From assembly GCA_963558405.1 (NCBI GenBank), contig CAUWGC010000005.1:833-64832 (forward strand): a stretch of 64,000 nucleotides of DNA. Direction: 5' to 3'. Origin of the DNA: an uncultured Clostridia bacterium. GTDB taxonomy: Bacteria; Bacillota; Clostridia; TANB77; CAG-508. The translations under genes were made by a program, and so were the position numbers. The number at the start of each line of letters is the position of its first letter. Within the stretch, counting starts at the first letter, position 1. The notes under the pieces were generated by a model. That model was not told where the DNA came from and made no database searches. It was given only the letters and a program-made list of their open reading frames with translations. Positions 1-21,047 of the stretch are shown in pieces.

Positions 1-3000
1 AATGCTTTGTCATCAATATCTTCCATTGTTCTTGCAGGAGTCTTTGATGTCATTATTTGAGAAATGAATTTTTGCTTTTGCTCTACTAATTGGTACATAT
101 AACTATCAAAGGTCTTTTCTGTAACATAAGAATATACAAATACTTTTTTATTTTCATTTCCCTGTCTAATCATTCTACCATTTCGTTGAGTTAAATCAGA
201 AGGTTTCCATGCACAATCTAAATGATGAGTTGCAATTAACTTATCTTGAACATTAGTACCTGCACCCATTTTTTGAGTTGAACCCATTAACACTCTAACT
301 TGTCCTTTTCTTACTTTGCTAAATAGTTCTTTCTTTTTAACCTCATTGTCTGCCTCGTGAATAAAAGCTATTTCATCAGGTGGAATACCTTTTTGAATTA
401 GCTTTTTCTTTAACTCATTATATACATCTGTAAATTCTTCTTTTTCATAGCCTTTTAAGTCTTTTGGTGTTGATAAATCGCAAAATACAAGTTGAGTTGA
501 TTTCTTATCACTATTTTCATCCCATATTCTATAAACATTTTCTGCACATGAATTTACTTTACTACTTTCTGAATCTGGTAATAAAGGATTCATAAGTCGT
601 TGGTCTAGTGCAAGTTTTCTACCCTCATTTGTAATTTTAAGCATATTATCTTCTGTTGCATCAACTGTTCCTGACCTTATTTTCTCTGCTCTTTCTCCTA
701 AAGCCTTAACCATTTCTTGCTGTATTTCACTTGGTTTTACAACTACATTTATATTTTCAAATTCTGGTGTTGGCAAATTTAATGTTTCAGCAGTTTGAAT
801 ATCTGCTACTTCTTTAAACATAGACATTAGCTCTGGTAAATTGTGAAATTTTGCAAATCTTGTTTTTGCTCTATATCCTGTACCCTCTGGTGCAAGTTCT
901 ATTGCAGTAACTGTTTCTCCAAATGTACTTGCCCAATTATCAAAATGTTCTAAACTATTTTCTTTTAGTCCAGAATATTGTAAATATCTTTGCATTGTAT
1001 AAAGTTCTGCCATCGAGTTACTTACTGGTGTTCCAGTAGCAAATACAGAACCTTTGCCTCCTGTAATTTCATCTAAATATCTACATTTCATAAAAAGGTC
1101 GGAGGATTTTTGTGCTTCAGTTTGTGCTATTCCACCTACATTACGCATTTTCGTATATAAAAACAAATTCTTATAATTATGAGCTTCATCAACAAATAAT
1201 TTATCTACACCTAATTTTTCAAATGTTACAACATCATCTTTTCTTTCTTCCTTATGTAATTTCTCTAATCTAGTTTCTAATGATTTTCTTGTTTTCTCCA
1301 TTTGTTTAATAGTATAGTTTTCTCCTCTGTTTGATTTTTCAGAGGCAATTCCTTTTGTAATATCACTTATTTGTTCTTCTAATAATGCAATTTGTCTTTC
1401 TATTGACATTGGTATTCTTTCAAATTGTGAATGTCCAATAATTACTGCATCAAATTCTCCTGTTGCTATCCTACTACAAAATTTCTTTCTATTTTTGGTT
1501 TCAAAGTCTTTTTTAGTAGCAACTAAAATATTGGCACTTGGATAAAGTTGCAAAAACTCACTTGCAAACTGCTCTATAATATGATTTGGAACTACAAATA
1601 AAGACTTATTACATAAGCCTAAACGCTTACTTTCCATTGCAGCTGCAACCATCTCAAAAGTCTTTCCTGCACCTACTTCATGTGCTAATAATGTGTTATT
1701 ACCATATAAAACATGTGCTACTGCATTAAGTTGATGTGTCCTTAATTTTATCTCTGGATTCATTCCTACAAAACCTATATGAGAGCCATCATATTCTCTT
1801 GGCCTTATGCAATTAAATTTATCATTATAAAGTCTTACTAAATGATTTCTTCTTTCTGGATCTTCCCATACCCAATTTAAGAATGCTTCTTTTATTGCGT
1901 CTTGTTTACTACAAGCTATTGCAGTTTCTTTTCTGTTTAATACTCTTTGTTTTCTGCCCTCATCATCTATAAATGTATCAAATATTTTTACATCTTTTAG
2001 ATTAAGTGTCTGTTCTATTATTTTATATGCATTTATTCTTGATGTACCATAAGTTGTATATGCTTTTACATTGTTTCTATCATTACTTTTTCCATCAATA
2101 TACCATTCAGCAGTTATATTAGAATATTTAACATGAATATCCCATCTGTTATAACTTGGTGTATCTAATAATTCAAAAATAAACTTTCTAATGATTTCTG
2201 GAGGTATCCATGTTGAGCCTAACTTAATTCCAATTTCACTTGCAGTAAGGTCTTTTGGAATAACCTCTTTTAATTTTTCAACATTTATATTAAAACTAGA
2301 ATCTTCTTTTGCAAATTCTTCTGCAACTTTTAGTTTTTCTCTAACATTACCAGATAAATATTCATCAGCAGTTACCCAATTATTTGTATTTTCATAATCA
2401 GGTACTTTAAATATAACACCCTTTAAACTTTTTATTATTTCTTTTTTGTCTATCTTGCATAATTGTTGCATATAATCTAAATCAACTTTTGCCTTATCTT
2501 GTATAGATAAAATCAAAGCCTCATCTGGAGTATCTACTTGTAATACTTTCTTTTTAGCTTTTATAGTTCTTTTGCTAAATATATCAGCTTTTCCTACAAA
2601 TTTACCCTCTCCATCCATCTTTTCAAGTGAGCATAATAAGAAATAACTACTATCATTAGAAAATGCTGTTTCATTTGCTCTTGAATTTATTAAGCCATAT
2701 TCTTTTGTAAATCTATCATATAATTCATTTAATTTTGCTTGTGCAATATGAATTTCCTCATCTGAATAATCTTCCATTTGAAAATCAATTAATTCTCTTA
2801 CCTGTTCTCTTAACAAAATTAAACCTTTTATTCTATTTTGTGCCGTTAAAGGTAACTCATCTTGTAATATCATTTTTGAATTTTCTCTAAAATACAATTT
2901 ATCATCTACTATTGCATAAGAATAATTCTTAACAGTTGGAATTGCAGGTATTGATGTGTCTTCTTGTTCAATTTCATTTTCAATACTATTATTCTGTAAT

Positions 3001-6000
3001 TCTCCATGTATATTAGTTATCGCATAATTTAATTGTTCTTCTAAATTTGTGTCTTCTTCTGCTTTACAAGTTGAATCATAGCCATAAGCAGTAGATACCA
3101 TTTCCATTTTTCCTAATATCATATCTGGATTATCTACAAAATATTTATTCATTGTAATATTGTTTTCATCTCTATCAAGATATACCCAATCTGGCATTAT
3201 ATCGGTCAAATTTTCTCTTTTTTGTAAGAAGATAATATCTGATGTTACTTTTGTTCCTGCATTCTTTGTAAAAGTATTATCTGGTAATCTAATAGCACCT
3301 AAAAGGTCTGCTCTTTGTGCTAAATACTTTCTAACCTCTGGACTTGCTTTATCCATTGTTCCTTTTGAAGTAATAAATGCAATTACTCCTCCTGGTCTAA
3401 CTTTATCTAAAGTTTTAGCAAAGAAATAATCGTGTATTAGAAAATTATTTTTATCATATCTTTTATCATTAACTTTGAAATCTCCAAATGGCACATTTCC
3501 TATTGCTATATCAAAAAACGAGTCTGGTAAATCTGCTTTTTCATAACCTTGAACTTTAATATTTGCTTTTTGATATAATTGTTTTGCTATCTTACCACTT
3601 ATAGAATCTAGTTCTACTCCATATAGTTTTGAACTTTGCATTTCTTGTGGCAACATTCCTAAAAAATTTCCTGTACCACAACTTGGTTCAAGAATATTTG
3701 CTTGTTCAACACCCATGCTTTTTAGAGTGTCATATATTGCATTTATAACTACTGGTGGTGTATAAAAAGCAGTTAAAGTAGAAGCTCTTGCAGACTTATA
3801 TTCTTCATCTGTAAGAATTTCTTTTAATTCGTTATATTCTTCGCTCCAATTATCTTTACTTTCATCAAACACATCTGGAAGTCCACCCCAACCGACATAT
3901 TTCGACAAAATATTCTGTTCTTCAGAATTTGCTAATCTATTTTCATCTTCTAACTTATGTAAAAGTTTTATTGCATCAATATTTCTTCTTACTTTTTCTT
4001 TTAGTGTACCTTCTCCTAATAATTTATCATCAATGTGATAATTAATCTTTTCTTGTTTAGGTTTTGGTTCTACTATTTCCTGTTTATTAGTAGTAATTTC
4101 TTTTTCAAAGTTTTTTTCATTACTATGATAAAGTGAAACTGCTCGTAAATAACTTTCGTTTCTCATAATTGGATAATGTGCAGTTTCTAACATTGTTTGG
4201 TCTAATAAAACAATTTCATCTAATTCTTTGTTAATAGCCTCAACTCTATATTTTCTATCACTTTCTAAATAAATAATTTGTCCTATTTTAAATTGTGTTT
4301 TTGGATCTTCGCTTAATTCTTTTACTGCACTAATGGCATTAGCAATTATTTGTGTTTCAACTCTATCAGCAATATCTTTTAGTTCTGCTTCTTGCTCTAA
4401 ATTATCAATAAATTCTTGACTAACTTCTTCTAGGCTTGTATCTGCTAATTCTGTAATATCAGTAAACTCTGCTAAATCTTTTCTTATATCATCTAAAGTC
4501 TTTTTGTCTTCATTTTCTGAATATTCTAAAAGTCCACCATCAATTTCTGTTCCCCTGTTGTCATATATTGCATAATAATATCCCTCATCGTTTGTATGAA
4601 AATGAAAATAATTTCCATTATTCAACTTATAATTTTTTTCAATATTTATACTAGATATATCTATAAAATCATTTGTGTTTTCTTTTAATCCTCTATCTAG
4701 CATCCATTTTTCTTTTTCATAGTCATTTTCTAACCATTCCTGGTATTTTATTTTTTCTTCATCATTAAAGTATCTATCTAATCTAATAATTTCTTTAAGT
4801 CTTTGTTCAACTTTACTCCAATTTATTAGTAGTTCTGCTCTATCATCTTTATAACCCTTATATAGCTTTATTCCTTTGCTATCGTGTTCTTGTCCAAAAT
4901 CAGCACCATAATATGCAGAACTTGAGCCTCCTATACCATATTCATGTTTTAGAAATATTATATTTTCCTTTGATGATAAGCTCCTTTTAAATTGTTCATA
5001 AATTCTATATTTACTATGTGAAAAATTGCTGCCCTCAATAAGTGTTTTATCTATCATTTCTTGAGTAAAAGAAAAAGCAGGAGTATTTTCTACTTCTGCT
5101 TGTGCTTGAATATTATTTATTTGTGTATCTACACTTGGCAACTCTTTAATTGGTGGTACATAAGTATCTTCAAAAAGATTTAATTGTAAATTAGCTCTGA
5201 CATTATCATTTCTTCTGCTTGGTTCTTTATTGAGTTCATTGCTTGTACCCAACTCATTTGATTCTCTCTTTTCATTTCCTCTGTTATTTGGTTCTTCTCT
5301 GCTAGACTTGTTATTATCTGTTTCATTCTCTTTTGAGCTGTTTGTTCTATTTCTCCTAAATGTTCTTCCATCTTTCCATCTAACATTAATTCCTCGTATA
5401 ACCCTCTTTTGTGTTCTTTTAGGAATTTCTCCCTCATTCTTGAGAATCCCCCCTGTGCCATTTTCTTCGTTTTTGGTAATGCTACTTGTGGTATTTGGTA
5501 ATCTCCCATTTGATTGTATGTTAATTCTATCATAATCATTTCTCCCTTCATTATTTTTTTCTTCATTATTATGATAATTTATTTTTTCATTATTAACAAA
5601 TGTACGATTTGTTAATTTGTAATTTTTTTCATAATTTATAACACTAGAATAGATTTCTCTTAATTCTTGTTCTGCAATATCACTTATTGCTGCACCTAAT
5701 CTTGAAACAACTCTTTTATTATTAAAACTACTAATCATTTCAAAATCTGATACATTAAAATGTTCTGTTGGTTCAATACCACATCTTTTCATTGCCATAT
5801 ATGATATTGATTTTGCAAGTAATACAATAAAGTTTCCCTCTAAATCTATATCTTGCATTCCCTCTAATAAGCTACCATCTAAAACATCTTTTAAATCAAC
5901 TAAATAATCTTGATAATTATCTTCTACTAAATTTATAGATGCAGAATATATTGCTTCTGCTAAATTAGATTTAACTTCTAAATTTCCAAAACTATTTTCT

Positions 6001-6371
6001 AATGTTTCTATAATTCCATTTTCATAAGAAGGTTTTATTTCCCACAACTTAAACTCTTTGTTTATTCCACTATGTGTATCTGAAATGTCAAAAACATGTC
6101 TTAATACATTTCTACCATTTTCTATTGATAATAATGCAATACCTTTTGCACCCTTATTAACCCATCTTCGTAATTTTTTATTCCAAGTTTCTATATCTGC
6201 ACAAGCAGTAGCATTTGGTTTTTGAGCATATATTAACACTTGCTCATTAAAAGAATATTTGTAATTGCTACTCGCTGTATTTAAAAACTTAATCCAACTT
6301 TCTCCATTTTGAGTAATTTCTTTCAATGTTTCACTTGCCATTTCATTTATTAGTTGATATTTATTCGCCAT
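1..6371 (-). CDS. Giant polyvalent conjugative-element protein, partial (C-terminus beyond window start): ArdC-like N-terminal domain, N6-adenine DNA methyltransferase domain, SNF2/DEAH helicase domain
   Basis: Minus-strand frame with no stop from the ATG at 6371 (GGAGGA 7 nt upstream) to the window edge. The frame is absent from the ORF track only because it has no stop in the window. Motifs read in translation: EPSCGTGNF (methyltransferase motif I), IGNVPFGDF (NPPY-like motif IV), HEVGAGKTF (Walker A), FVDEAHNYKN (DEAH box), QRNGRMIRQGN (helicase motif VI). N-terminal 250 aa resemble an ArdC-N ssDNA-binding domain. Confidence 0.8.
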   Translation of the reverse strand, partial: MANKYQLINEMASETLKEITQNGESWIKFLNTASSNYKYSFNEQVLIYAQKPNATACADIETWNKKLRRWVNKGAKGIALLSIENGRNVLRHVFDISDTHSGINKEFKLWEIKPSYENGIIETLENSFGNLEVKSNLAEAIYSASINLVEDNYQDYLVDLKDVLDGSLLEGMQDIDLEGNFIVLLAKSISYMAMKRCGIEPTEHFNVSDFEMISSFNNKRVVSRLGAAISDIAEQELREIYSSVINYEKNYKLTNRTFVNNEKINYHNNEEKNNEGRNDYDRINIQSNGRLPNTTSSITKNEENGTGGILKNEGEIPKRTQKRVIRGINVRWKDGRTFRRNRTNSSKENETDNNKSSREEPNNRGNEKRESNELGTSNELNKEPSRRNDNVRANLQLNLFEDTYVPPIKELPSVDTQINNIQAQAEVENTPAFSFTQEMIDKTLIEGSNFSHSKYRIYEQFKRSLSSKENIIFLKHEYGIGGSSSAYYGADFGQEHDSKGIKLYKGYKDDRAELLINWSKVEQRLKEIIRLDRYFNDEEKIKYQEWLENDYEKEKWMLDRGLKENTNDFIDISSINIEKNYKLNNGNYFHFHTNDEGYYYAIYDNRGTEIDGGLLEYSENEDKKTLDDIRKDLAEFTDITELADTSLEEVSQEFIDNLEQEAELKDIADRVETQIIANAISAVKELSEDPKTQFKIGQIIYLESDRKYRVEAINKELDEIVLLDQTMLETAHYPIMRNESYLRAVSLYHSNEKNFEKEITTNKQEIVEPKPKQEKINYHIDDKLLGEGTLKEKVRRNIDAIKLLHKLEDENRLANSEEQNILSKYVGWGGLPDVFDESKDNWSEEYNELKEILTDEEYKSARASTLTAFYTPPVVINAIYDTLKSMGVEQANILEPSCGTGNFLGMLPQEMQSSKLYGVELDSISGKIAKQLYQKANIKVQGYEKADLPDSFFDIAIGNVPFGDFKVNDKRYDKNNFLIHDYFFAKTLDKVRPGGVIAFITSKGTMDKASPEVRKYLAQRADLLGAIRLPDNTFTKNAGTKVTSDIIFLQKRENLTDIMPDWVYLDRDENNITMNKYFVDNPDMILGKMEMVSTAYGYDSTCKAEEDTNLEEQLNYAITNIHGELQNNSIENEIEQEDTSIPAIPTVKNYSYAIVDDKLYFRENSKMILQDELPLTAQNRIKGLILLREQVRELIDFQMEDYSDEEIHIAQAKLNELYDRFTKEYGLINSRANETAFSNDSSYFLLCSLEKMDGEGKFVGKADIFSKRTIKAKKKVLQVDTPDEALILSIQDKAKVDLDYMQQLCKIDKKEIIKSLKGVIFKVPDYENTNNWVTADEYLSGNVREKLKVAEEFAKEDSSFNINVEKLKEVIPKDLTASEIGIKLGSTWIPPEIIRKFIFELLDTPSYNRWDIHVKYSNITAEWYIDGKSNDRNNVKAYTTYGTSRINAYKIIEQTLNLKDVKIFDTFIDDEGRKQRVLNRKETAIACSKQDAIKEAFLNWVWEDPERRNHLVRLYNDKFNCIRPREYDGSHIGFVGMNPEIKLRTHQLNAVAHVLYGNNTLLAHEVGAGKTFEMVAAAMESKRLGLCNKSLFVVPNHIIEQFASEFLQLYPSANILVATKKDFETKNRKKFCSRIATGEFDAVIIGHSQFERIPMSIERQIALLEEQISDITKGIASEKSNRGENYTIKQMEKTRKSLETRLEKLHKEERKDDVVTFEKLGVDKLFVDEAHNYKNLFLYTKMRNVGGIAQTEAQKSSDLFMKCRYLDEITGGKGSVFATGTPVSNSMAELYTMQRYLQYSGLKENSLEHFDNWASTFGETVTAIELAPEGTGYRAKTRFAKFHNLPELMSMFKEVADIQTAETLNLPTPEFENINVVVKPSEIQQEMVKALGERAEKIRSGTVDATEDNMLKITNEGRKLALDQRLMNPLLPDSESSKVNSCAENVYRIWDENSDKKSTQLVFCDLSTPKDLKGYEKEEFTDVYNELKKKLIQKGIPPDEIAFIHEADNEVKKKELFSKVRKGQVRVLMGSTQKMGAGTNVQDKLIATHHLDCAWKPSDLTQRNGRMIRQGNENKKVFVYSYVTEKTFDSYMYQLVEQKQKFISQIMTSKTPARTMEDIDDKA
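5180..5566 (-). CDS. TnpV-like protein (Tn4451 TnpV family). Complete ORF in the +1 frame relative to the surrounding giant ORF; likely start at an internal ATG (5539 or 5533) preceded by AAGGGAG
   Basis: 128-codon ORF IELTYNQMGDYQIPQVALP...GLYEELMLDGKMEEHLGEIEQTA...NQMSWVQAMNSIKNQAEEMIMSELIYN. It matches the remembered TnpV pattern LTY..GDY.IP...R..YL...R..LY..LLL.G.L..HL.EID..A......E.....QM.WV..MN.IR..AEE.V..ELI. It has its own SD and a TAA stop exactly at the end of the homology. The frame-0 reading of the same nucleotides is low-complexity (N/E/K/R-rich). Confidence 0.6.
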   Translation of the reverse strand: MKKKIMKGEMIMIELTYNQMGDYQIPQVALPKTKKMAQGGFSRMREKFLKEHKRGLYEELMLDGKMEEHLGEIEQTAQKRMKQIITSLAEKNQITEEMKRENQMSWVQAMNSIKNQAEEMIMSELIYN

Positions 6372-6588
6372 CGGTTTCCTCCTTTCTCGTTTCTTGATAA
6401 TTGAAATACCCTATTGTATTATGGTCTTTAATAAACTCTCGCAGTGCAATAATATTTAAAACATCAGGGTCTTTCGTTATTTCTTTTAAATCTTCTATTT
6501 TTAAATTAGAAATATCTTTTTCTGTTGATTTCCCAATACTTATTAACTTGTTATATGTTTCCATTCTTAAGTTTCTTTTTCTAGGCAT
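6361..6588 (-). CDS. Hypothetical 75-aa protein; its stop overlaps the start of the giant ORF by 11 nt
   Basis: ORF preceded by GGAGGTG; charged and helical composition; no recognisable family. Confidence 0.4.
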   Translation of the reverse strand: MPRKRNLRMETYNKLISIGKSTEKDISNLKIEDLKEITKDPDVLNIIALREFIKDHNTIGYFNYQETRKEETDGE

Positions 6589-7360: not shown

Positions 7361-10300
7361 CTATTTATCTTTATTTTGTTTACGCTTAATTATAATATAA
7401 GCTATTCCTAGTAAAGATAGAATAATTGAACCTGCAAATAATTTTATTTTGCTTTCCACTCCTGTTTTAGGAACTTCTATCTTTTTATTTTCAAAAGTAA
7501 ATTCTATTGTATTTTCATTTTCTTCTACTTGTGTATCCTCTACAAATATACCTTTGTCATTGATTTCTACTTTAACAATCTTGCTTGATAATTCATAATC
7601 TTTTGGTGCTTTTATTTCTTTAATGTAATATGTTCCATATCTTAATTCTTCGAATAAAGCTGTTCCATCTTCTGAATTAGATTTAACCTCTTTAATAAGT
7701 TTAGTACATTCTGGATCTTCGTATATTGCAAATATGAATTTGTCTTTAATAACTTCTTTTGTTTCAGTATCAATCTTAATTACCTTTACATTTTTTAGTA
7801 TTGGCATATCTTTCATTTCTATTTTTTGAGTTTCTTTATCATTTGTTACTGTGAATTTTATTTCTTCAGTAATTTCATAACCATAAGGAGCAGTAGTTTC
7901 TTTTAAGATATATGTTTTACCTTCTTCTAAACCTTTTACTTTATGAGGTTCTTTAGTAGATGTCCATTTATCTATTGTGTTACCATCTTCATCTATAACT
8001 TCTAGTTCTGCACCCTCTAATTCGTTTCCATTAGTTATATCTGTTTTTGTTATTTCTACTAATTTATCAATCATAACTACTTTTTGTGTTTCTTTATCTG
8101 GTGTTACAATAAACTCTACATCAGTTGCTTTTACATAAGAATCTGCAACTATTTCTTCATGTAATGTATAAGTTTCTCCCTCAACTAAATTTTTGATTTT
8201 GTGTGGTTCTTTACCAGATACCCACTCATCAACTACTTTGTTGTATTTATCTAATACTTGAATTGTTGCACCTTCAATTTCTTTTCCTGCAATATCAACT
8301 TTGCTCATTTCTACTATTTTGTCTATCATTTCAACTTTTTGAATATCTTTTTTATTTGTAACTTCAAATTCAACATCTGTTGCTACAACATATCCATCAG
8401 GAGCATATTCTTCATGTAAAATATATTTTTTACCTTCTTCTATTCTATTTATGTTATGACTTTCTTTTGTAGATGTCCAACTATCGATTACATTTCCGTC
8501 TTTATCAGTAACAACAATTTCTGCACCCTCAATTTCTTTTCCACCTATATCTGCTTTTGTCATTGTTACTATTTTATCTATCATTTTAACTTGTTGTACT
8601 TTTGTTGTACTTTCAACTTTAAATTCTATTGTAGAAGCTCTTACATATCCATCAGGTGCAATTTCTTCTTTTAATTTATAAGTTTTTCCAACTACCAAGC
8701 CCTCTATTTTATGAGTCTTTTTAGTAGATGTCCATGTATCAACAACTTTATTATTTTCATCAATAACAGATAATTTTGCACCTTCAAGTTCATCATCTCC
8801 TGTTACAGATTTTTTAGAAAATTCAAACATTGTTGTATCATTAGATATATCTTTAATATCTTCATATACCTTTGTTGTTAAGTCTTTTTGTTCACATTTT
8901 ACTTCATATTTAGTCCAATTTAAAACTAATCCGTCTAAAGTTTTTGTTTCCTCTAATTCATAAGTTCCCATAGGTAAATTATCAACTTTTAAATTACCTT
9001 TTTTATCCAAATTATATTTCTTTATTTCTTGACCTTTAGTATATATTTTGCTTCCATCTGCATAATCAATAATATCTTCTTTTGCAGTAAGTTTGAATTC
9101 AATACCTGATAAATCAGAGGTATCAACCAATGATGTGTCAGCATCTTCTCTTAATGCTATTGTTTTATTTATAATTAAAGTGCCTGTAGGTTGTTCATTT
9201 TTCATTAAAACTTCTTTAATAAAATCTTCATCTTGATCTTTATCATAATCTCTTATTCCTTTTATTTCAAAAGTAACTGGTTTTTCTAATTGTAAGAAAC
9301 CTTTTGGAGTTTTTATTTCATAAATTGCATAACTTCCAACTGGTAATTGTAAAGGAGTAACAACTGAACCTTTATCATCTTTGTTATTAGTAAAGCTTTT
9401 ATCTGGTACTATCATATTATCTGCATTTGTTGTAAATGAAGTATATGTTGTACTACCAATTTTTTGTGAAATTGATTCTCCTTTTTTCCATATTATTTTT
9501 CCTGTTGCTCTATCGTAAATATCTTTTTCAGCTTTTATTTCAAAGGTTGTACTTGTCAATGTAACAACTTTTCCAGTTTTTAAATCTTTTTTGATTAACT
9601 TTATATATGCTTCTAATTGTTCATTATTAACAACAATATGTTTTGTTTTTTGTGGTATTTCTTTTATTTCACTTTCGTCTTGAGTAATAGAAAAATAGAA
9701 ATCACTTGCACTTTCATAATCTTTTGGTGTAACTGTTTCCTTAACGATATATTTACCATAAGGTAAGTTCTTTTGTGTGTATGCATTACCATCTTTATCA
9801 GTTACTAATACATCATAAGTAGGAGCTATTTTTTGAGCTTCTGCAACTCTTTTAGTATCGACATTAACTTTATTTCCGTTTTCATCAACACCATTCCATA
9901 CTTCCGCATAAGTGTATCCTTGTGAATATGCTTTTTCTACTGCTGAATTTAATTTAATTGTAAATTCTGCACCTTCAAGACCAGGTGTTTCTCCTGAATT
10001 TGCTTTTATTCCTGATTTAAAGATGTGTACTCCCATTTTCTTTACATCTTCATTACTTGTAGTCTTATTTGCTATAACTTTTGTATGTTGGTCTTTATAC
10101 TCCAAATTTACAGGATATTCCGTTTTATCAAGTAAGTACCCAACAGAAGCTTTATCTTCTTTTACTATATATTTTCCAAGAGGTAAATCTTCAACAGGTG
10201 TTGTGTTGCCAAACTTATCCATTGTTCTTGTTGCTACTAAATCTCCTTTTGAATAATACTTTTTACTTTTAGCTACATTGTATATATCTTCATTAGCAAA

Positions 10301-12828: not shown

Positions 12829-12878
12829 GTGTTCACACAAACAAGTATAACTAAATATATCTAATTTTGTTCACACAC
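12829..12878. repeat. Two direct copies of (G/T)TGTTCACACA immediately 3-prime of parB; candidate partition or operator site
   Basis: gtgttcacacaaaca at 12829-12843 and ttgttcacacac at 12867-12878. Confidence 0.3.
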
Positions 12879-13828
12879 TATCTTGAATTTCTTTCTTGTT
12901 TTATTCGTTCTCGCCTAATATAATCTTGCACACATTGAATAATAAAATCTTCAACATTTCCAGATTCTTTAACTCTACTTGGAATATATTTTTCTATTTT
13001 TTCATTGTGTATCTTTATATATTCTTTTTGATTTGGCTTTTCCTGTTGTAGTATTTCTTCTATTTTTTCTTCTGTTAGGTTTCCTTCTTGTTCTAATTTC
13101 TTTAATCTTATTGCTTGACTTAAAGAAGGTGTTACCTCATCAAATTCAAATATATTTTCTACAACATATTGATTTTCTTCACTTAAATATGATAATTCTA
13201 CTGCTGGTCTAAAAGCTATTCTTTTGTTATCAACTTGTTCTAATAACTCTGGTATTAAATAAGTAAGTCGAATATATCTCTGTATAGTTCTTGCACTTTC
13301 TCCAACTTCTTCTCCCATTCTTTCTGCACTTTTTAACTTGTCGCCCAATGGTCGCGAAGTTATATCTTCTTCTAAATCAACTCTTTTCCCCTGATGTTTC
13401 ATAGCTTCAAGTTTCATTTTATATGCAAATGCTTTTTCACTAGGCAATATTTCTTCTCTTTGAATATTACTATCTACCATAAGAATTGTTGCCTCATCAT
13501 CAGTTAATTCTTTAACAATACATTTTATTTTATCTATTCCTGCAAGTTCACACGCTCTTTTTCTTCTATGTCCAGAAATCATTTGATAATTTCCTTCTCC
13601 TCGTTTTCTTACTATAACAGGTAATAAAACTCCATGTTCTTTTACACTTTTAACCATTTCTTCCATTTTATCATCATCTATAACTCTAAAAGGGTGGTCT
13701 GGAAATTCTCCTATTTTATATAGTTCTATTTCCTTTACCTCATCAACAACTGGATTATCTCTTTGTTCTTGACTTGTGAATAAATCATCTAACTTTGGAA
13801 GTACCATCTTTTTGTCTTGTTCTTTCAT
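12878..13828 (-). CDS. parB: ParB/Spo0J-family partition protein (conjugative-element type)
   Basis: ParB box ISGHRRKRACELAG with LPVIVRKRG upstream; start overlaps parA. Confidence 0.8.
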   Translation of the reverse strand: MKEQDKKMVLPKLDDLFTSQEQRDNPVVDEVKEIELYKIGEFPDHPFRVIDDDKMEEMVKSVKEHGVLLPVIVRKRGEGNYQMISGHRRKRACELAGIDKIKCIVKELTDDEATILMVDSNIQREEILPSEKAFAYKMKLEAMKHQGKRVDLEEDITSRPLGDKLKSAERMGEEVGESARTIQRYIRLTYLIPELLEQVDNKRIAFRPAVELSYLSEENQYVVENIFEFDEVTPSLSQAIRLKKLEQEGNLTEEKIEEILQQEKPNQKEYIKIHNEKIEKYIPSRVKESGNVEDFIIQCVQDYIRRERIKQERNSR

Positions 13829-14610
13829 TCTCTAATACCTCCTTTGCTAAATTATTGTATGCGTTTGCAACAGGACTATTTTTATCAAACTCAAATATAC
13901 TCTTTCCTGTTGATGTTGATTTTGCTGTATTTATTGCTTTTGGTATTTCAGCACCATATATTTTCACATATTGTCCATAATTGTCGATTAAAGTATCTCT
14001 TACATCTTTTGATAAATTTGTTCTTTTATCTACTAATGTAAGTAATACTCCACCTATTTTCAAATTAGGATTTATTTGTTTCTGCACTCTCGTAACTGTC
14101 TTTAATAAATGTCCCATTCCTTTTGCAGCCAGATATTCTCCCTGTACTGGAATTATTATCTTATCACTACAAGCCAGAGCATTTATTGTTATCATTCCAA
14201 GAGATGGCATACAATCTATCAATACATAATCATAGTTATCTTTAATATCTCTTATAGAATTTTTAAGTGTGAACTCTCTGCTCATTGCATTAACTAATGA
14301 AAACTCTATTGCTGATAAATCTAAATTAGCAGGAATTAAATCTATTCCTTCTTTATGATGAAGAATAGCATTTTCTGCATTTATTTCATTATCACATATA
14401 GTATCAGACATTAATGTTCCAATAGTATTCTGCAATTCATCTTGATTATAATAACCCATACAAGTAGTTAAATCTCCGTTGTGGATCTGCATCAATTAGT
14501 AATACTCTTTTTCCTTGTTTACTAAGTGCAACTCCTAAACTAAATGTAGTTGTTGTTTTTCCAACTCCACCTTTTTGATTTGCTATTGCAATTATCTGAC
14601 ACTTTCCCAT
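13785..14610 (-). pseudogene. parA: ParA/Soj-family ATPase interrupted by a +1 frameshift after the Walker A and DADPQ region
   Basis: The N-terminal ORF (ORF track 14446..14628) reads [44 protein letters not shown], then runs out of frame to a stop. The remainder, [20 protein letters not shown]..., is in the +1 frame (13785..14495). Deleting one nucleotide in the run ccacaacgg near 14480-14490 restores [13 protein letters not shown]. Likely start ATG at 14610 preceded by AAGGAG. Confidence 0.7.
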
Positions 14611-15394: not shown

Positions 15395-16429
15395 TTATTT
15401 TTTCTTTAAATCTTTTGAATAATATATTAAATCAGTACAAGTTAATTCTCCATCTTTTATTTCTTCTTTATAATTATCTATAAAGAAATTTTTAATTGTT
15501 TTCTCATATTTATCAAATCCCTGCTTAACATAGAAAGGAATATTATTCTCTGTTGTTCCTACCAACATTCTGTCATATTTTTGTTTATAATTACCACATA
15601 ATGATTTTAAAAGTGTTTTTGCATAACCTTTATTTCTGTAATTTTCTTTTGTAACTATGTTCTTTAACTCTAATGTTTTTCTATCAATGTGCAAAATAAC
15701 TGCAATAGAAATTAGCTCATCTTCTTTTTTTAATGCATATACATCAGAATCGTTCAAATACTTATGTATCATGTCTTTTGAAGGATCTGCCTCTAAAAGT
15801 AAGTCTATATAATCTTCTTTATTTTCTATTTTTTTAACCTGCATTCTAGGTTCTTTTGGTATCTCGTAACCATTGGTATTAGTGGTTTGTATAGGATTGC
15901 GGTTATAATATCTCATCTCCTCAGAAAAAATACATCCACAATACTTTTGCCTATATAACCCTAACTCTTTTGCTTTTTCTTGTCCTTGTCTAAAGCCTAC
16001 TCTAAAATCTCTTTCTAAAAATTCTAATCCATACTTTAAAGCTATTTCTTTTCCTACTTTTATTATTCCTTCATGATTTTGGTATGGACTTACTAATAAA
16101 GTTGTTGTAATTGTGTCATATCCATGTTCTTTTGCATATTTAGCTGTTTGTTCTAATCTTATTTTATAACAATAGTTAATACATCTATTTTGTAAATCAT
16201 TTATTACATTTTTGCAAAAATTTTGCAAACCATATTCTTCTTCAAAAATTACATTTACTCCTACTGATGGTGCATATTCTTTTAATGTATCTCTTCTCAT
16301 TTTGTATTCAGTATAAGGATGTATGTTTGGATTGTACCAATATAATGTTGGTTCTATATTTTCTTTTCTTAATGCTTCTATGCAGTAAATACTACATGGA
16401 GCACAACATGTATGCATTAATAATTTCAT
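15395..16429 (-). CDS. queH: Epoxyqueuosine reductase QueH (DUF208) fused to a C-terminal GNAT acetyltransferase domain
   Basis: N-terminal HTCCAPCS cysteine motif and YWYNPNIHP typical of QueH. C-terminal ~150 aa carry RNKGYAKTLL (GNAT motif A) and YVKQGFDKY. Confidence 0.7.
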   Translation of the reverse strand: MKLLMHTCCAPCSIYCIEALRKENIEPTLYWYNPNIHPYTEYKMRRDTLKEYAPSVGVNVIFEEEYGLQNFCKNVINDLQNRCINYCYKIRLEQTAKYAKEHGYDTITTTLLVSPYQNHEGIIKVGKEIALKYGLEFLERDFRVGFRQGQEKAKELGLYRQKYCGCIFSEEMRYYNRNPIQTTNTNGYEIPKEPRMQVKKIENKEDYIDLLLEADPSKDMIHKYLNDSDVYALKKEDELISIAVILHIDRKTLELKNIVTKENYRNKGYAKTLLKSLCGNYKQKYDRMLVGTTENNIPFYVKQGFDKYEKTIKNFFIDNYKEEIKDGELTCTDLIYYSKDLKKK

Positions 16430-20012: not shown

Positions 20013-21047
20013 TTAATCTTTATCATATTTATATCCCAAATGACTATATGCATCTGGAAGTGCAATTCTTCCTCTTGGAGTACGAGAAATAAATCCTATT
20101 TGCATTAGGTATGGTTCATATACATCTTCTATTGTCTCTAGTTCTTCTCCTGTACTTGCAGATAAAGCTTCTATTCCTACTGGTCCACCACCATATTTTT
20201 CTATCATAGTACTTATTAATCTTCTATCTATCTCGTCTAATCCTAATTCATCTATCTCTAATTTATTTAATGCTATTTTTGCAATTTCTAAAGTAACATT
20301 TCCATCTGCTAATACTAATGCATAATCTCTAACCCTTTTTAAAATTCTATTAGCAATTCTAGGTGTTCCTCTAGATCTTCTAGCTATTTCTCTTGCCGCT
20401 TCTGGTTCAATACAAATTCCTAAAATATTACTAGAACGGTCTACTATTTTTTGCAAATCTTCTGGTGAATATAATTCTAGACGTTCAACTATTCCGAATC
20501 TATCTCTAAGAGGAGTTGTTAAAGATCCAGCCTTAGTAGTAGCACCAATTAAAGTAAATTTAGGCAAATCTAAACGAATAGACCTAGCACTTGGTCCTTT
20601 TCCTATAATAATATCTAAAGTGTAATCTTCTAAGGCAGGGTATAAGATTTCCTCTACTGATTTACTAAGCCTATGAATTTCATCAATAAATAACACATCA
20701 AAAGGAGATAAGTTTGTAAGTAATGCAGCTAAATCTCCTGGTTTTTCTATAGCTGGTCCTGAAGTAATTTTTATGTTAGAATTCATTTCATTTGAAATAA
20801 TATTAGAAAGTGTTGTTTTTCCTAATCCAGGTGGTCCATATAATAAAACATGGTCTAAAGGTTCTCCTCTTTTTTTTGCAGCTTCTATATATACTTTCAT
20901 ATTTTCTTTTACTTTTGTTTGTCCAATATATTCTGATAAAGTTTTTGGTCTTAAAGTAGTTTCTAATCGTTCTTCTTGAATATCTTCAAGTTCTGGATTA
21001 ATAATTTTATTTTCGTCCATTTTAATCTCCTTTATTATCATATACAT
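20013..21047 (-). CDS. ruvB: Holliday junction branch-migration ATPase RuvB
   Basis: [17 protein letters not shown] Walker A, RuvB-typical arginine-finger region; about 340 aa. Confidence 0.95.

Follow-up and report, generated by a model that had tools for sequence, protein, structure and literature searches.

The Rz/Rz1 spanin genes of phage lambda are an example of a complete gene, equipped with start signals of its own, that is wholly contained in a longer gene on the same strand, in the +1 frame. Spanin pairs occur in nature in embedded, overlapped, and separated versions, the embedded partner is usually overlooked by gene callers, and the arrangement has been proposed to originate when the loss of a stop codon lets the upstream gene read over the downstream one (PMC6139136). 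A small regulatory gene, comS, is located in a distinct frame inside the very large multidomain srfAB gene of Bacillus subtilis, and its expression is tied to the host operon (PMC12915044). In Tn4451, Tn4453, and related mobilisable transposons, tnpV is free-standing beside the serine recombinase gene tnpX, and TnpV has been postulated to aid excision on the basis of its similarity to lambda Xis (PMC3158075). The ArdC-N domain has been described as an N-terminal header of polyvalent proteins of conjugative elements (Iyer, Burroughs, Anand, de Souza, and Aravind 2017; PMC5512222). Here, we analyze a 64,000-nt stretch of DNA (the window; contig CAUWGC010000005.1) from an uncultured Clostridia bacterium, in which a tnpV gene lies in the +1 frame inside a giant open reading frame (ORF) for a predicted polyvalent protein. 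The data suggest that 354–387 nt at window positions 5180–5566 are genuinely dual-coding on one strand, with tnpV nested in the linker of the polyvalent gene, a reading to which we assign a probability of about 0.85.

The locus shares the embedded architecture of Rz/Rz1, but it differs from it in three respects. The host is a conjugative-element protein of ~2,350 amino acids (aa) instead of a 153-aa phage lysis protein, the embedded TnpV is the strongly conserved, folded partner while the host frame is an unconstrained linker, and the overlap of ~117 codons is conserved across Firmicutes classes. The likeness is architectural. Similarly to comS, tnpV is a small gene in another frame of a huge multidomain Firmicute gene. 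The comS gene has 46 codons and is limited to close relatives of B. subtilis. In contrast, TnpV has 117 codons and represents a Pfam family that comprises 9,557 cluster representatives and also occurs stand-alone. The window protein belongs to the same family as TnpV of Tn4451 and Tn4453, with a full-length match to PF14198 and the Y-x3-GDY-x-P, W, and ELIY motifs, but its gene lies inside a polyvalent gene and has no adjacent recombinase gene within the window. The host protein is like those described by Iyer et al. in that LPD, methylase, and SWI2/SNF2 regions are combined in a protein of a conjugative element, and its N-terminus would correspond to their ArdC-N header, for which the Pfam match is sub-threshold. 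That study (PMC5512222) contains no mention of TnpV, overlapping frames, or linkers (0 occurrences), and we found no paper linking TnpV with ArdC, polyvalent proteins, or overlapping or nested genes. We place the tnpV locus in the known class of embedded out-of-frame genes, as a new member with unusually good support.

The longest ORF of tnpV has 128 codons and begins at ATG 5566 (5566–5180, minus strand), in the +1 frame relative to ATG 6371 of the giant ORF (6371 − 5566 = 805 = 3 × 268 + 1). An initial annotation, made from the sequence of the window, had proposed that this ORF encodes a full-length TnpV-family protein with its own AAGGGAG Shine–Dalgarno (SD) sequence and a TAA stop at the end of the homology. 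The profile search of the 128-aa ORF agreed with this proposal, because the match covered the whole Pfam profile PF14198 (positions 1–111 of 111) with 128.7 bits (E = 1.2e-37), where the cut-off is 27, and the TAA is located two residues past the end of the match. The family-invariant Y-x3-GDY-x-P, W, N, and C-terminal ELIY residues are present in the corresponding alignment columns of the window protein, and the AlphaFold2 model of TnpV had a pLDDT of 83.5; no structural relatives of TnpV were found. Among the best 150 of the 9,557 TnpV representatives there was no giant protein with an internal TnpV domain; the match mostly reached the C-terminus, and about a dozen proteins had a short C-terminal extension. 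In a phage collection, TnpV matched only Streptococcus prophages and unannotated fragments named "Bacteriophage sp." At window positions 5459–5464 TnpV has a glycine (QGGFSRM) where all relatives have a basic residue (QG[RK][FY]); it results from an A-to-G change creating a G6 run, which could be a genuine substitution or an error of base calling.

The comparison of relatives showed that the start codon of tnpV is not ATG 5566, where the initial annotation had placed it, and where relatives have other codons. The conserved start is ATG 5533, 8 nt after the SD sequence, which gives a protein of 117 aa, in the size range of the family (~115–125 aa). The SD sequence and this ATG are kept in 35 of 35 nested loci examined, with the ATG 8–10 codons ahead of the GDY motif, and SD-like elements (GAAGGGAG, GAAAGGAG, GGAAGGAG, GAGAGGAG, AGAAAGGA) are found ~8 nt upstream of the ATG in low-GC as well as high-GC nested lineages. 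In two relatives (L020 and L094) a stop codon in the tnpV frame directly abuts the ATG. Therefore, TnpV must initiate on its own in these relatives, and a frameshift from frame 0, the frame of the giant ORF, at an upstream site is excluded as a general mechanism. A candidate promoter is located upstream of the SD sequence. It has the top sigma-70-like score of all 55-nt segments of the ORF in the window and ranks among the best 5% in 12 of 16 lineages, which is suggestive of an internal promoter that could also serve tnpV.

To compare selection in the two frames, the rates of nonsynonymous (dN) and synonymous (dS) substitutions were pooled from eight phylogenetically independent pairs. In the flanks, frame 0 behaved as a conserved coding sequence, with dS of 0.67, dN of 0.113, and dN/dS of 0.17 in the ArdC-N flank, and with dS of 0.67, dN of 0.227, and dN/dS of 0.34 in the 3′ flank. 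Within the overlap the tnpV frame had dS of 0.56, dN of 0.068, and dN/dS of 0.12, while in frame 0 the pattern was inverted, with dS of 0.057, dN of 0.156, and dN/dS of 2.74. When the sites were divided into classes, those that are synonymous in TnpV and nonsynonymous in frame 0 changed at a rate of 0.096, and the TnpV-nonsynonymous ones at 0.011–0.023. The data showed that the preserved amino acid sequence is that of frame 0 on both sides of the overlap and that of the tnpV frame within it, with the change exactly at the tnpV boundaries. The initial annotation had argued that a conserved, alignable frame-0 segment in homologous polyvalent proteins would speak against nesting. Such a segment can formally be aligned, but the similarity among homologues (GRL..T, NE, NLQ) is the shadow of the invariant GDY.IP, MN, and IY codons of TnpV, as seen from the low dS and higher dN of frame 0, and it leaves the nested reading standing.

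The absence of stop codons from the host frame was analyzed by fixing the TnpV protein, drawing synonymous codons from the element's own codon usage, and calculating the exact probability that no host-frame stop occurs. For the window about 10.2 stops were expected and none was found (P = 8.6e-9). The corresponding probabilities were from 1e-8 to 1e-12 in AT-rich lineages, and GC-rich lineages had values from 2e-2 to 7e-5. No T occurs at the third position of the 48 tnpV codons of the window that precede AA/AG/GA codons, while 11 of the 80 other codons end in T. The third frame across tnpV contains about 20–26 stops. Of the TnpV-synonymous changes that create a frame-0 stop, ~23.6 were expected and at most one was counted, which is a multi-hit artifact, so that none is real. 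The frame-0 peptide, which was earlier described as low-complexity filler, is indeed a hydrophilic linker poor in hydrophobic residues. Their fraction in the window is 0.147, while stop-free synonymous resamples have 0.200 and the remainder of the protein has 0.336. The depletion relative to such resamples was observed in 14 of 14 lineages. The open host frame is neither a chance occurrence nor an effect of composition. The second proposal of the initial annotation, that these are separate genes whose separating stops are missing because the region is purine-rich, is not supported as stated, because the lack of T at the 48 positions is a selected signature and stand-alone tnpV genes do contain 1–26 host-frame stops. 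Separate genes may, however, describe the evolutionary origin of the locus.

The same arrangement was observed in the relatives. Exact-protein look-ups of TnpV homologues gave 16 contigs of close relatives, and the host frame was open across tnpV in all of them. A scan of one genome per species yielded 80 TnpV loci with 42%–99% identity, and the distribution of stops was bimodal. There were no host-frame stops in 37 of the 80 loci, while the remaining 43, in which tnpV is stand-alone, had from 1 to 26. In the nested loci the open frame extends for 1,700–3,237 codons wherever the contig allows, tnpV is located 233–290 codons from the ORF start, and a stop codon for ArdC-N was found in none of the 37. 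The nested set includes the cultured isolates Acutalibacter sp. 1XD8-33, Oscillospiraceae bacterium 50-58, Clostridiaceae bacterium strain 9, and Clostridium sp. CAG:780, as well as HiFi circular assemblies, and the same frame structure is also seen in finished plasmids. The stand-alone tnpV genes of Pusillibacter, Vescimonas, and S. gallolyticus (pSGG1) plasmids have 3–4 stops in the host frame.

More distant examples were found on plasmids. In plasmids of Monoglobus pectinilyticus and Cohnella herbarum, tnpV is nested in frames of 2,193 and 2,086 codons; their TnpV proteins, with 37%–38% identity, have scores of 127 and 106 bits, above the Pfam cut-off. A DNA-level plasmid search with the region gave just five weak C. 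botulinum matches. Five distant plasmid giant genes, each annotated in RefSeq/GenBank as a single intact coding sequence (CDS), contain a +1-frame ORF at residues ~230–360, and all five ORFs pass the Pfam TnpV cut-off. These are C. botulinum p05/025 (SNF2-related protein; 85.9 bits), C. perfringens JXJA17 p3 (helicase-related protein; 84.9 bits), Bacillus wiedmannii pFCC41-3 (helicase SNF2; 58.4 bits), E. faecalis pN23-3408-b (SNF2-related protein; 32.6 bits), and Listeria innocua pLI100 (class I SAM-dependent methyltransferase; 28.7 bits). As a negative control, canonical ArdC proteins (ArdC-N with HExxH peptidase) of S. aureus pUSA03, L. plantarum, L. lactis, and Micromonospora had no nested ORF. 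Overall, the nesting is kept in 37 species and seven plasmids from Clostridia and Bacilli. The gene tables (L002, L020, L010–L017) of the Monoglobus and Cohnella plasmids and of several metagenome-assembled genomes (MAGs) list a "TnpV protein" beside an empty gap at the giant ORF, while for plasmids of C. botulinum, C. perfringens, Bacillus, Enterococcus, and Listeria (L102, L108–L111) the giant CDS is the only one annotated. The proposal of a tnpV overprinted in the linker of a polyvalent gene, also made in the initial annotation, is thus supported by the selection signatures in both frames and by an arrangement kept while the TnpV identity falls from 99% to <30%.

The giant ORF was translated from ATG 6371 through 2123 codons without a stop to the window edge, as had been claimed for it (Table 1). 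Orthologues have ~2330–2384 codons (2384 in L022 and 2333 in L026). The earlier assignment of ArdC-N, methyltransferase, and SNF2 domains was upheld for the helicase, with scores of 45 bits for SNF2-rel_dom, 30.7 bits for ResIII, and 25.1 bits for Helicase_C, all of which pass the Pfam cut-offs, while the methyltransferase match is below the cut-off and ArdC-N is only sub-threshold. For residues 1–268 the best Pfam match was ArdcN, at 15.5 bits against 22.6 (E = 0.021), and tblastn with this module matched genes annotated as ArdC-like, ArdC family, or LtrC in 697 plasmid records, the best with E ~1e-10 (Listeria). The homologues of the methyltransferase-like region are annotated as class I SAM-dependent methyltransferases. 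A PDB search with the ArdC-N-like module gave no match, and an NCBIfam scan of TnpV and the N-terminal 524 aa of the giant protein gave nothing useful. In one polypeptide, the giant protein combines several unrelated effector domains, of which LPD and SWI2/SNF2 are above and the methylase is below the cut-off. The conserved segment that follows the tnpV stop lacks a conserved start codon, as the Met of "QEMID" is not conserved among homologues, and therefore it must be translated from upstream.

Table 1. Positions of the nested tnpV gene, its predicted signals, and the parts of the giant ORF in the window
Feature	Position	Strand	Details
tnpV CDS, +1 frame	5180..5533	−	Conserved ATG 5533-5531 to TAA 5182-5180; 117 aa (MIELTY...)
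Internal Shine–Dalgarno sequence AAGGGAG for tnpV	5542..5548	−	8 nt before ATG 5533; inside frame-0 codons E-G-R
A7 homopolymer	5554..5560	−	Just upstream of tnpV SD
Candidate internal promoter	5571..5599	−	TTGTTA (5599-5594), 17 nt, TATCAT (5576-5571); −10 ends 37 nt before ATG 5533
Giant polyvalent-protein ORF, frame 0	1..6371	−	ATG 6371-6369; 2123 codons without stop; runs past left window edge
Shine–Dalgarno sequence AAGGAGG of giant ORF	6378..6384	−	6 nt 5′ of ATG 6371; read from sequence
N-terminal ArdC-N-like single-stranded DNA-binding "header" module	5567..6371	−	aa 1-268, frame 0
Frame-0 linker of giant protein	5181..5566	−	aa 269-397; hydrophilic, N/E/K/R/S/T/G-rich; open but protein sequence unconserved
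Conserved frame-0 segment right after tnpV stop (NLFEDTYVPPIKELPSV..QAEVENTPAFSFTQEMIDKTL)	5040..5180	−	Nucleotide and protein conservation
LPD16 domain	4389..4640	−	aa 578-661; Pfam PF18830, 33.2 bits versus cut-off 27
Methyltransferase-like region	3492..3695	−	aa 893-960; Pfam Methyltransf_25, 21.5 bits, under cut-off 27
SNF2/ResIII helicase core and Helicase_C	159..1751	−	aa 1541-2071; Pfam

The linker was present in 11 of 11 distant frame-0 homologues from the protein database. Homologues with low query coverage were considered as possibly lacking the linker, but this was rejected, because the drop in coverage is due to a domain inserted after it. This extra conserved domain of ~110 aa (alignment columns ~410–540) directly follows the linker in many homologous polyvalent proteins (P0126, P0146, P0149, P0162, and others) and is not in the window's protein. 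Its conserved pattern is ..IL....LK....EI..F...D...R.E.IK..FN..YTE....GYK...N.L..WKG.YL.. Across the tnpV stop (5168–5186) frame 0 reads LQLNLF, which resembles the QLxLF beta-clamp-binding consensus. We make no claim that "QLNLF" is such a motif, because its "LQ" is forced by the conserved I-Y codons of TnpV and the likeness may be accidental. A conserved 75-aa ORF (6361–6588, minus strand), which belongs to no Pfam family and is present in all syntenic relatives, extends over the first 11 nt of the giant ORF, and this stop/start overlap suggests that the two could be translationally coupled.

Several observations weigh against the nested reading. In a related element, the run at window positions 5560–5554 is A6 instead of A7, which splits the giant ORF and creates a 396-aa in-frame fusion of ArdC-N and TnpV. 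This variant was observed in at least 24 contigs from several samples (A6 in L103–L107 versus A7 in L013–L017), and in it a helicase gene of 1856 aa is called separately. In another relative (L018), the ArdC-N module is terminated by a TAG at 9958–9960, 40 nt upstream of tnpV, and three genes are called. Because the A6 and L018 variants exist, some lineages can do without the continuous ORF. The amino acid sequence of the frame-0 linker is not conserved in itself, and hence only the avoidance of stops, the composition, and the flanking coding sequence speak for its translation. A generic promoter/terminator scan showed no enrichment of promoter-like sites in the region (13 versus 16.8 expected), and the candidate promoter is missing in high-GC Oscillospiraceae lineages. 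A neighbor-joining tree of the 117-aa protein interleaves nested and stand-alone TnpVs and is too weak to fix the evolutionary direction. On the other hand, all 37 nested species-representative genomes retain the continuous frame despite the variants, and in L018 frame 0 is open again from the codon after the TAG across the whole of tnpV.

Four metagenome contigs (L003, positions 7800–8400, L006, L007, and L009) have tnpV and the downstream giant ORF at ~99% identity without the ArdC-N module, and they diverge completely 25–80 nt upstream of the tnpV ATG. The upstream DNA of L003 contains phi29-like podovirus genes (connector, major capsid, tail). Contigs of this type could be either recombinants retaining the candidate internal promoter or chimeric assemblies.

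The A6 variants raise the question of whether the product of the overlap is a 396-aa ArdC-N–TnpV fusion, made instead of or alongside free TnpV by ribosomal +1 frameshifting or transcriptional slippage at the A-run. We consider such recoding improbable, even though the variant DNA encodes exactly this fusion and an SD-like element lies just downstream of the run. The A-run is not conserved, being A4–A6 at varying positions in other lineages, unlike a slippery site, and what is conserved is the ~8-nt spacing between the SD sequence and the ATG. About a dozen database proteins of 383–415 aa (e.g., P0094, P0116, P0119) are in-frame fusions of ArdC-N and TnpV through single-base indels in differing homopolymers, but their junctions are at A7, A5, and G-run sites, as expected of ordinary homopolymer indels or sequencing errors. 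The stop codon that precedes the ATG in L020 and L094 also excludes an upstream shift. The A7/A6 variation itself could be phase-variation-like switching, decay, or sequencing error.

It is very unlikely that only the giant protein is made and that tnpV is a decaying relic swallowed at a gene fusion. Although RefSeq annotates the giant CDS alone on the five plasmids named above, a relic is not consistent with the dN/dS of 0.12 in the tnpV frame and the inverted pattern in frame 0. A relic in AT-rich DNA would gain stops quickly, as illustrated by the third frame, while the ORF, the SD sequence, and the ATG are intact in every nested locus down to <30% identity. Equally little speaks for the translation of TnpV alone in the overlap, with ArdC-N and the methylase–helicase made as separate proteins and the open frame being a by-product of purine-rich sequence. 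The three genes called in L018 and the unconserved protein sequence of the linker would fit this explanation, but the host frame is open across tnpV in L018 as well. Moreover, the probabilities of 1e-8 to 1e-12 for a stop-free frame, the bimodal census in which stand-alone tnpV genes do carry stops, and a hydrophobic depletion exceeding the effect of stop avoidance all argue against it, as do the lack of an ArdC-N stop in 37 of 37 nested loci and of a conserved start after tnpV. Two compensating indels in the window, which the initial annotation had listed as a third explanation and which the A7 and G6 runs could have favored, are rejected by the identical frame structure in independent assemblies, which comprise 37 species-representative genomes (cultured isolates and HiFi circular MAGs among them) and finished plasmids.

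The data are best explained by a nested tnpV in which the two frames would have different roles. Frame 0 would encode a disordered hydrophilic tether of the giant protein, between the ArdC-N-like header and the LPD16, methyltransferase, and SNF2 helicase regions, and ribosomes starting at ATG 6371, which meet no stop, would have to read through it. TnpV would be translated independently from its own SD sequence and ATG 5533, and the candidate internal promoter at 5599–5571 would probably also serve its expression. Selection keeps the amino acid sequence of TnpV, while in frame 0 it demands only the absence of stop codons and of hydrophobic residues. The arrangement appears to be an old and stable feature of such polyvalent genes in Firmicutes conjugative plasmids and integrative and conjugative elements (ICEs).

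As to its origin, tnpV was probably once located between an ardC-like gene and a methylase–helicase gene. The flanking genes could then have been joined by reading through tnpV in the +2 frame, so that the linker was overprinted on tnpV. The ordered, conserved protein of an overlapping pair is usually encoded by the older frame. For this reason we favor the overprinting of the linker on tnpV after the loss of the ardC stop over the reverse origin, in which TnpV was born inside the linker. The loss of the stop and the overprinting would have been easiest in a GC-rich genome, where the probability of a stop-free frame is ~1e-2.

A more far-reaching reading, which we regard as tentative and rather less probable than its negation, is that the overlap is an ancient obligatory Firmicutes module and among the longest and most deeply conserved same-strand nested gene pairs so far known from bacteria. 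The tether would have been overprinted on tnpV, or TnpV would have been born there and then escaped to Tn4451-like transposons. The overlap could couple or oppose the expression of the two products, because TnpV would have an internal promoter and SD sequence while ribosomes on the giant ORF would run over its start. The A7/A6 indels could switch between the full-length polyvalent protein and an ArdC-N–TnpV fusion with a separate helicase.

The giant gene is located at the edge of an integrated element, and it is flanked by ParB (12878–13828), ParA (13785–14495), and a SpaA-type surface protein of 1511 aa. In syntenic relatives the gene order extends into DUF3991-Toprim, MobC, and relaxase genes, and plasmid homologues of the giant gene adjoin MobP2 relaxases. 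With ParA/ParB, the syntenic relaxase genes, and the MobP2 neighbors, this setting is that of a conjugative or mobilisable element. After ParA/ParB and a 207-aa element gene, chromosomal genes follow, including a QueH-GNAT fusion (15395–16429) and RuvB (20013–21047), and this gene order suggests that the mobile element ends near 15.3 kb.

In bacteria, long overlapping genes on one strand are uncommon and frequently contested, since most candidates are without evolutionary depth. The tnpV locus offers independent, quantifiable selection in both frames across Clostridia and Bacilli, and its carriers include laboratory-tractable plasmids of Listeria, Enterococcus, the Bacillus thuringiensis group, C. 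perfringens, and C. botulinum. It also exposes a systematic annotation gap, as pipelines retain either TnpV or the giant gene and never both, which affects hundreds of plasmids and ICEs. As a natural example of a disordered linker hosting a second gene, the locus is relevant to protein design and bears on the emergence of new genes, on gene fusions, and on the design of overlapping CDSs. Finally, it provides a lead on the function of TnpV, because it ties this very common mobile-element protein to the ArdC-N/methylase/helicase establishment machinery.

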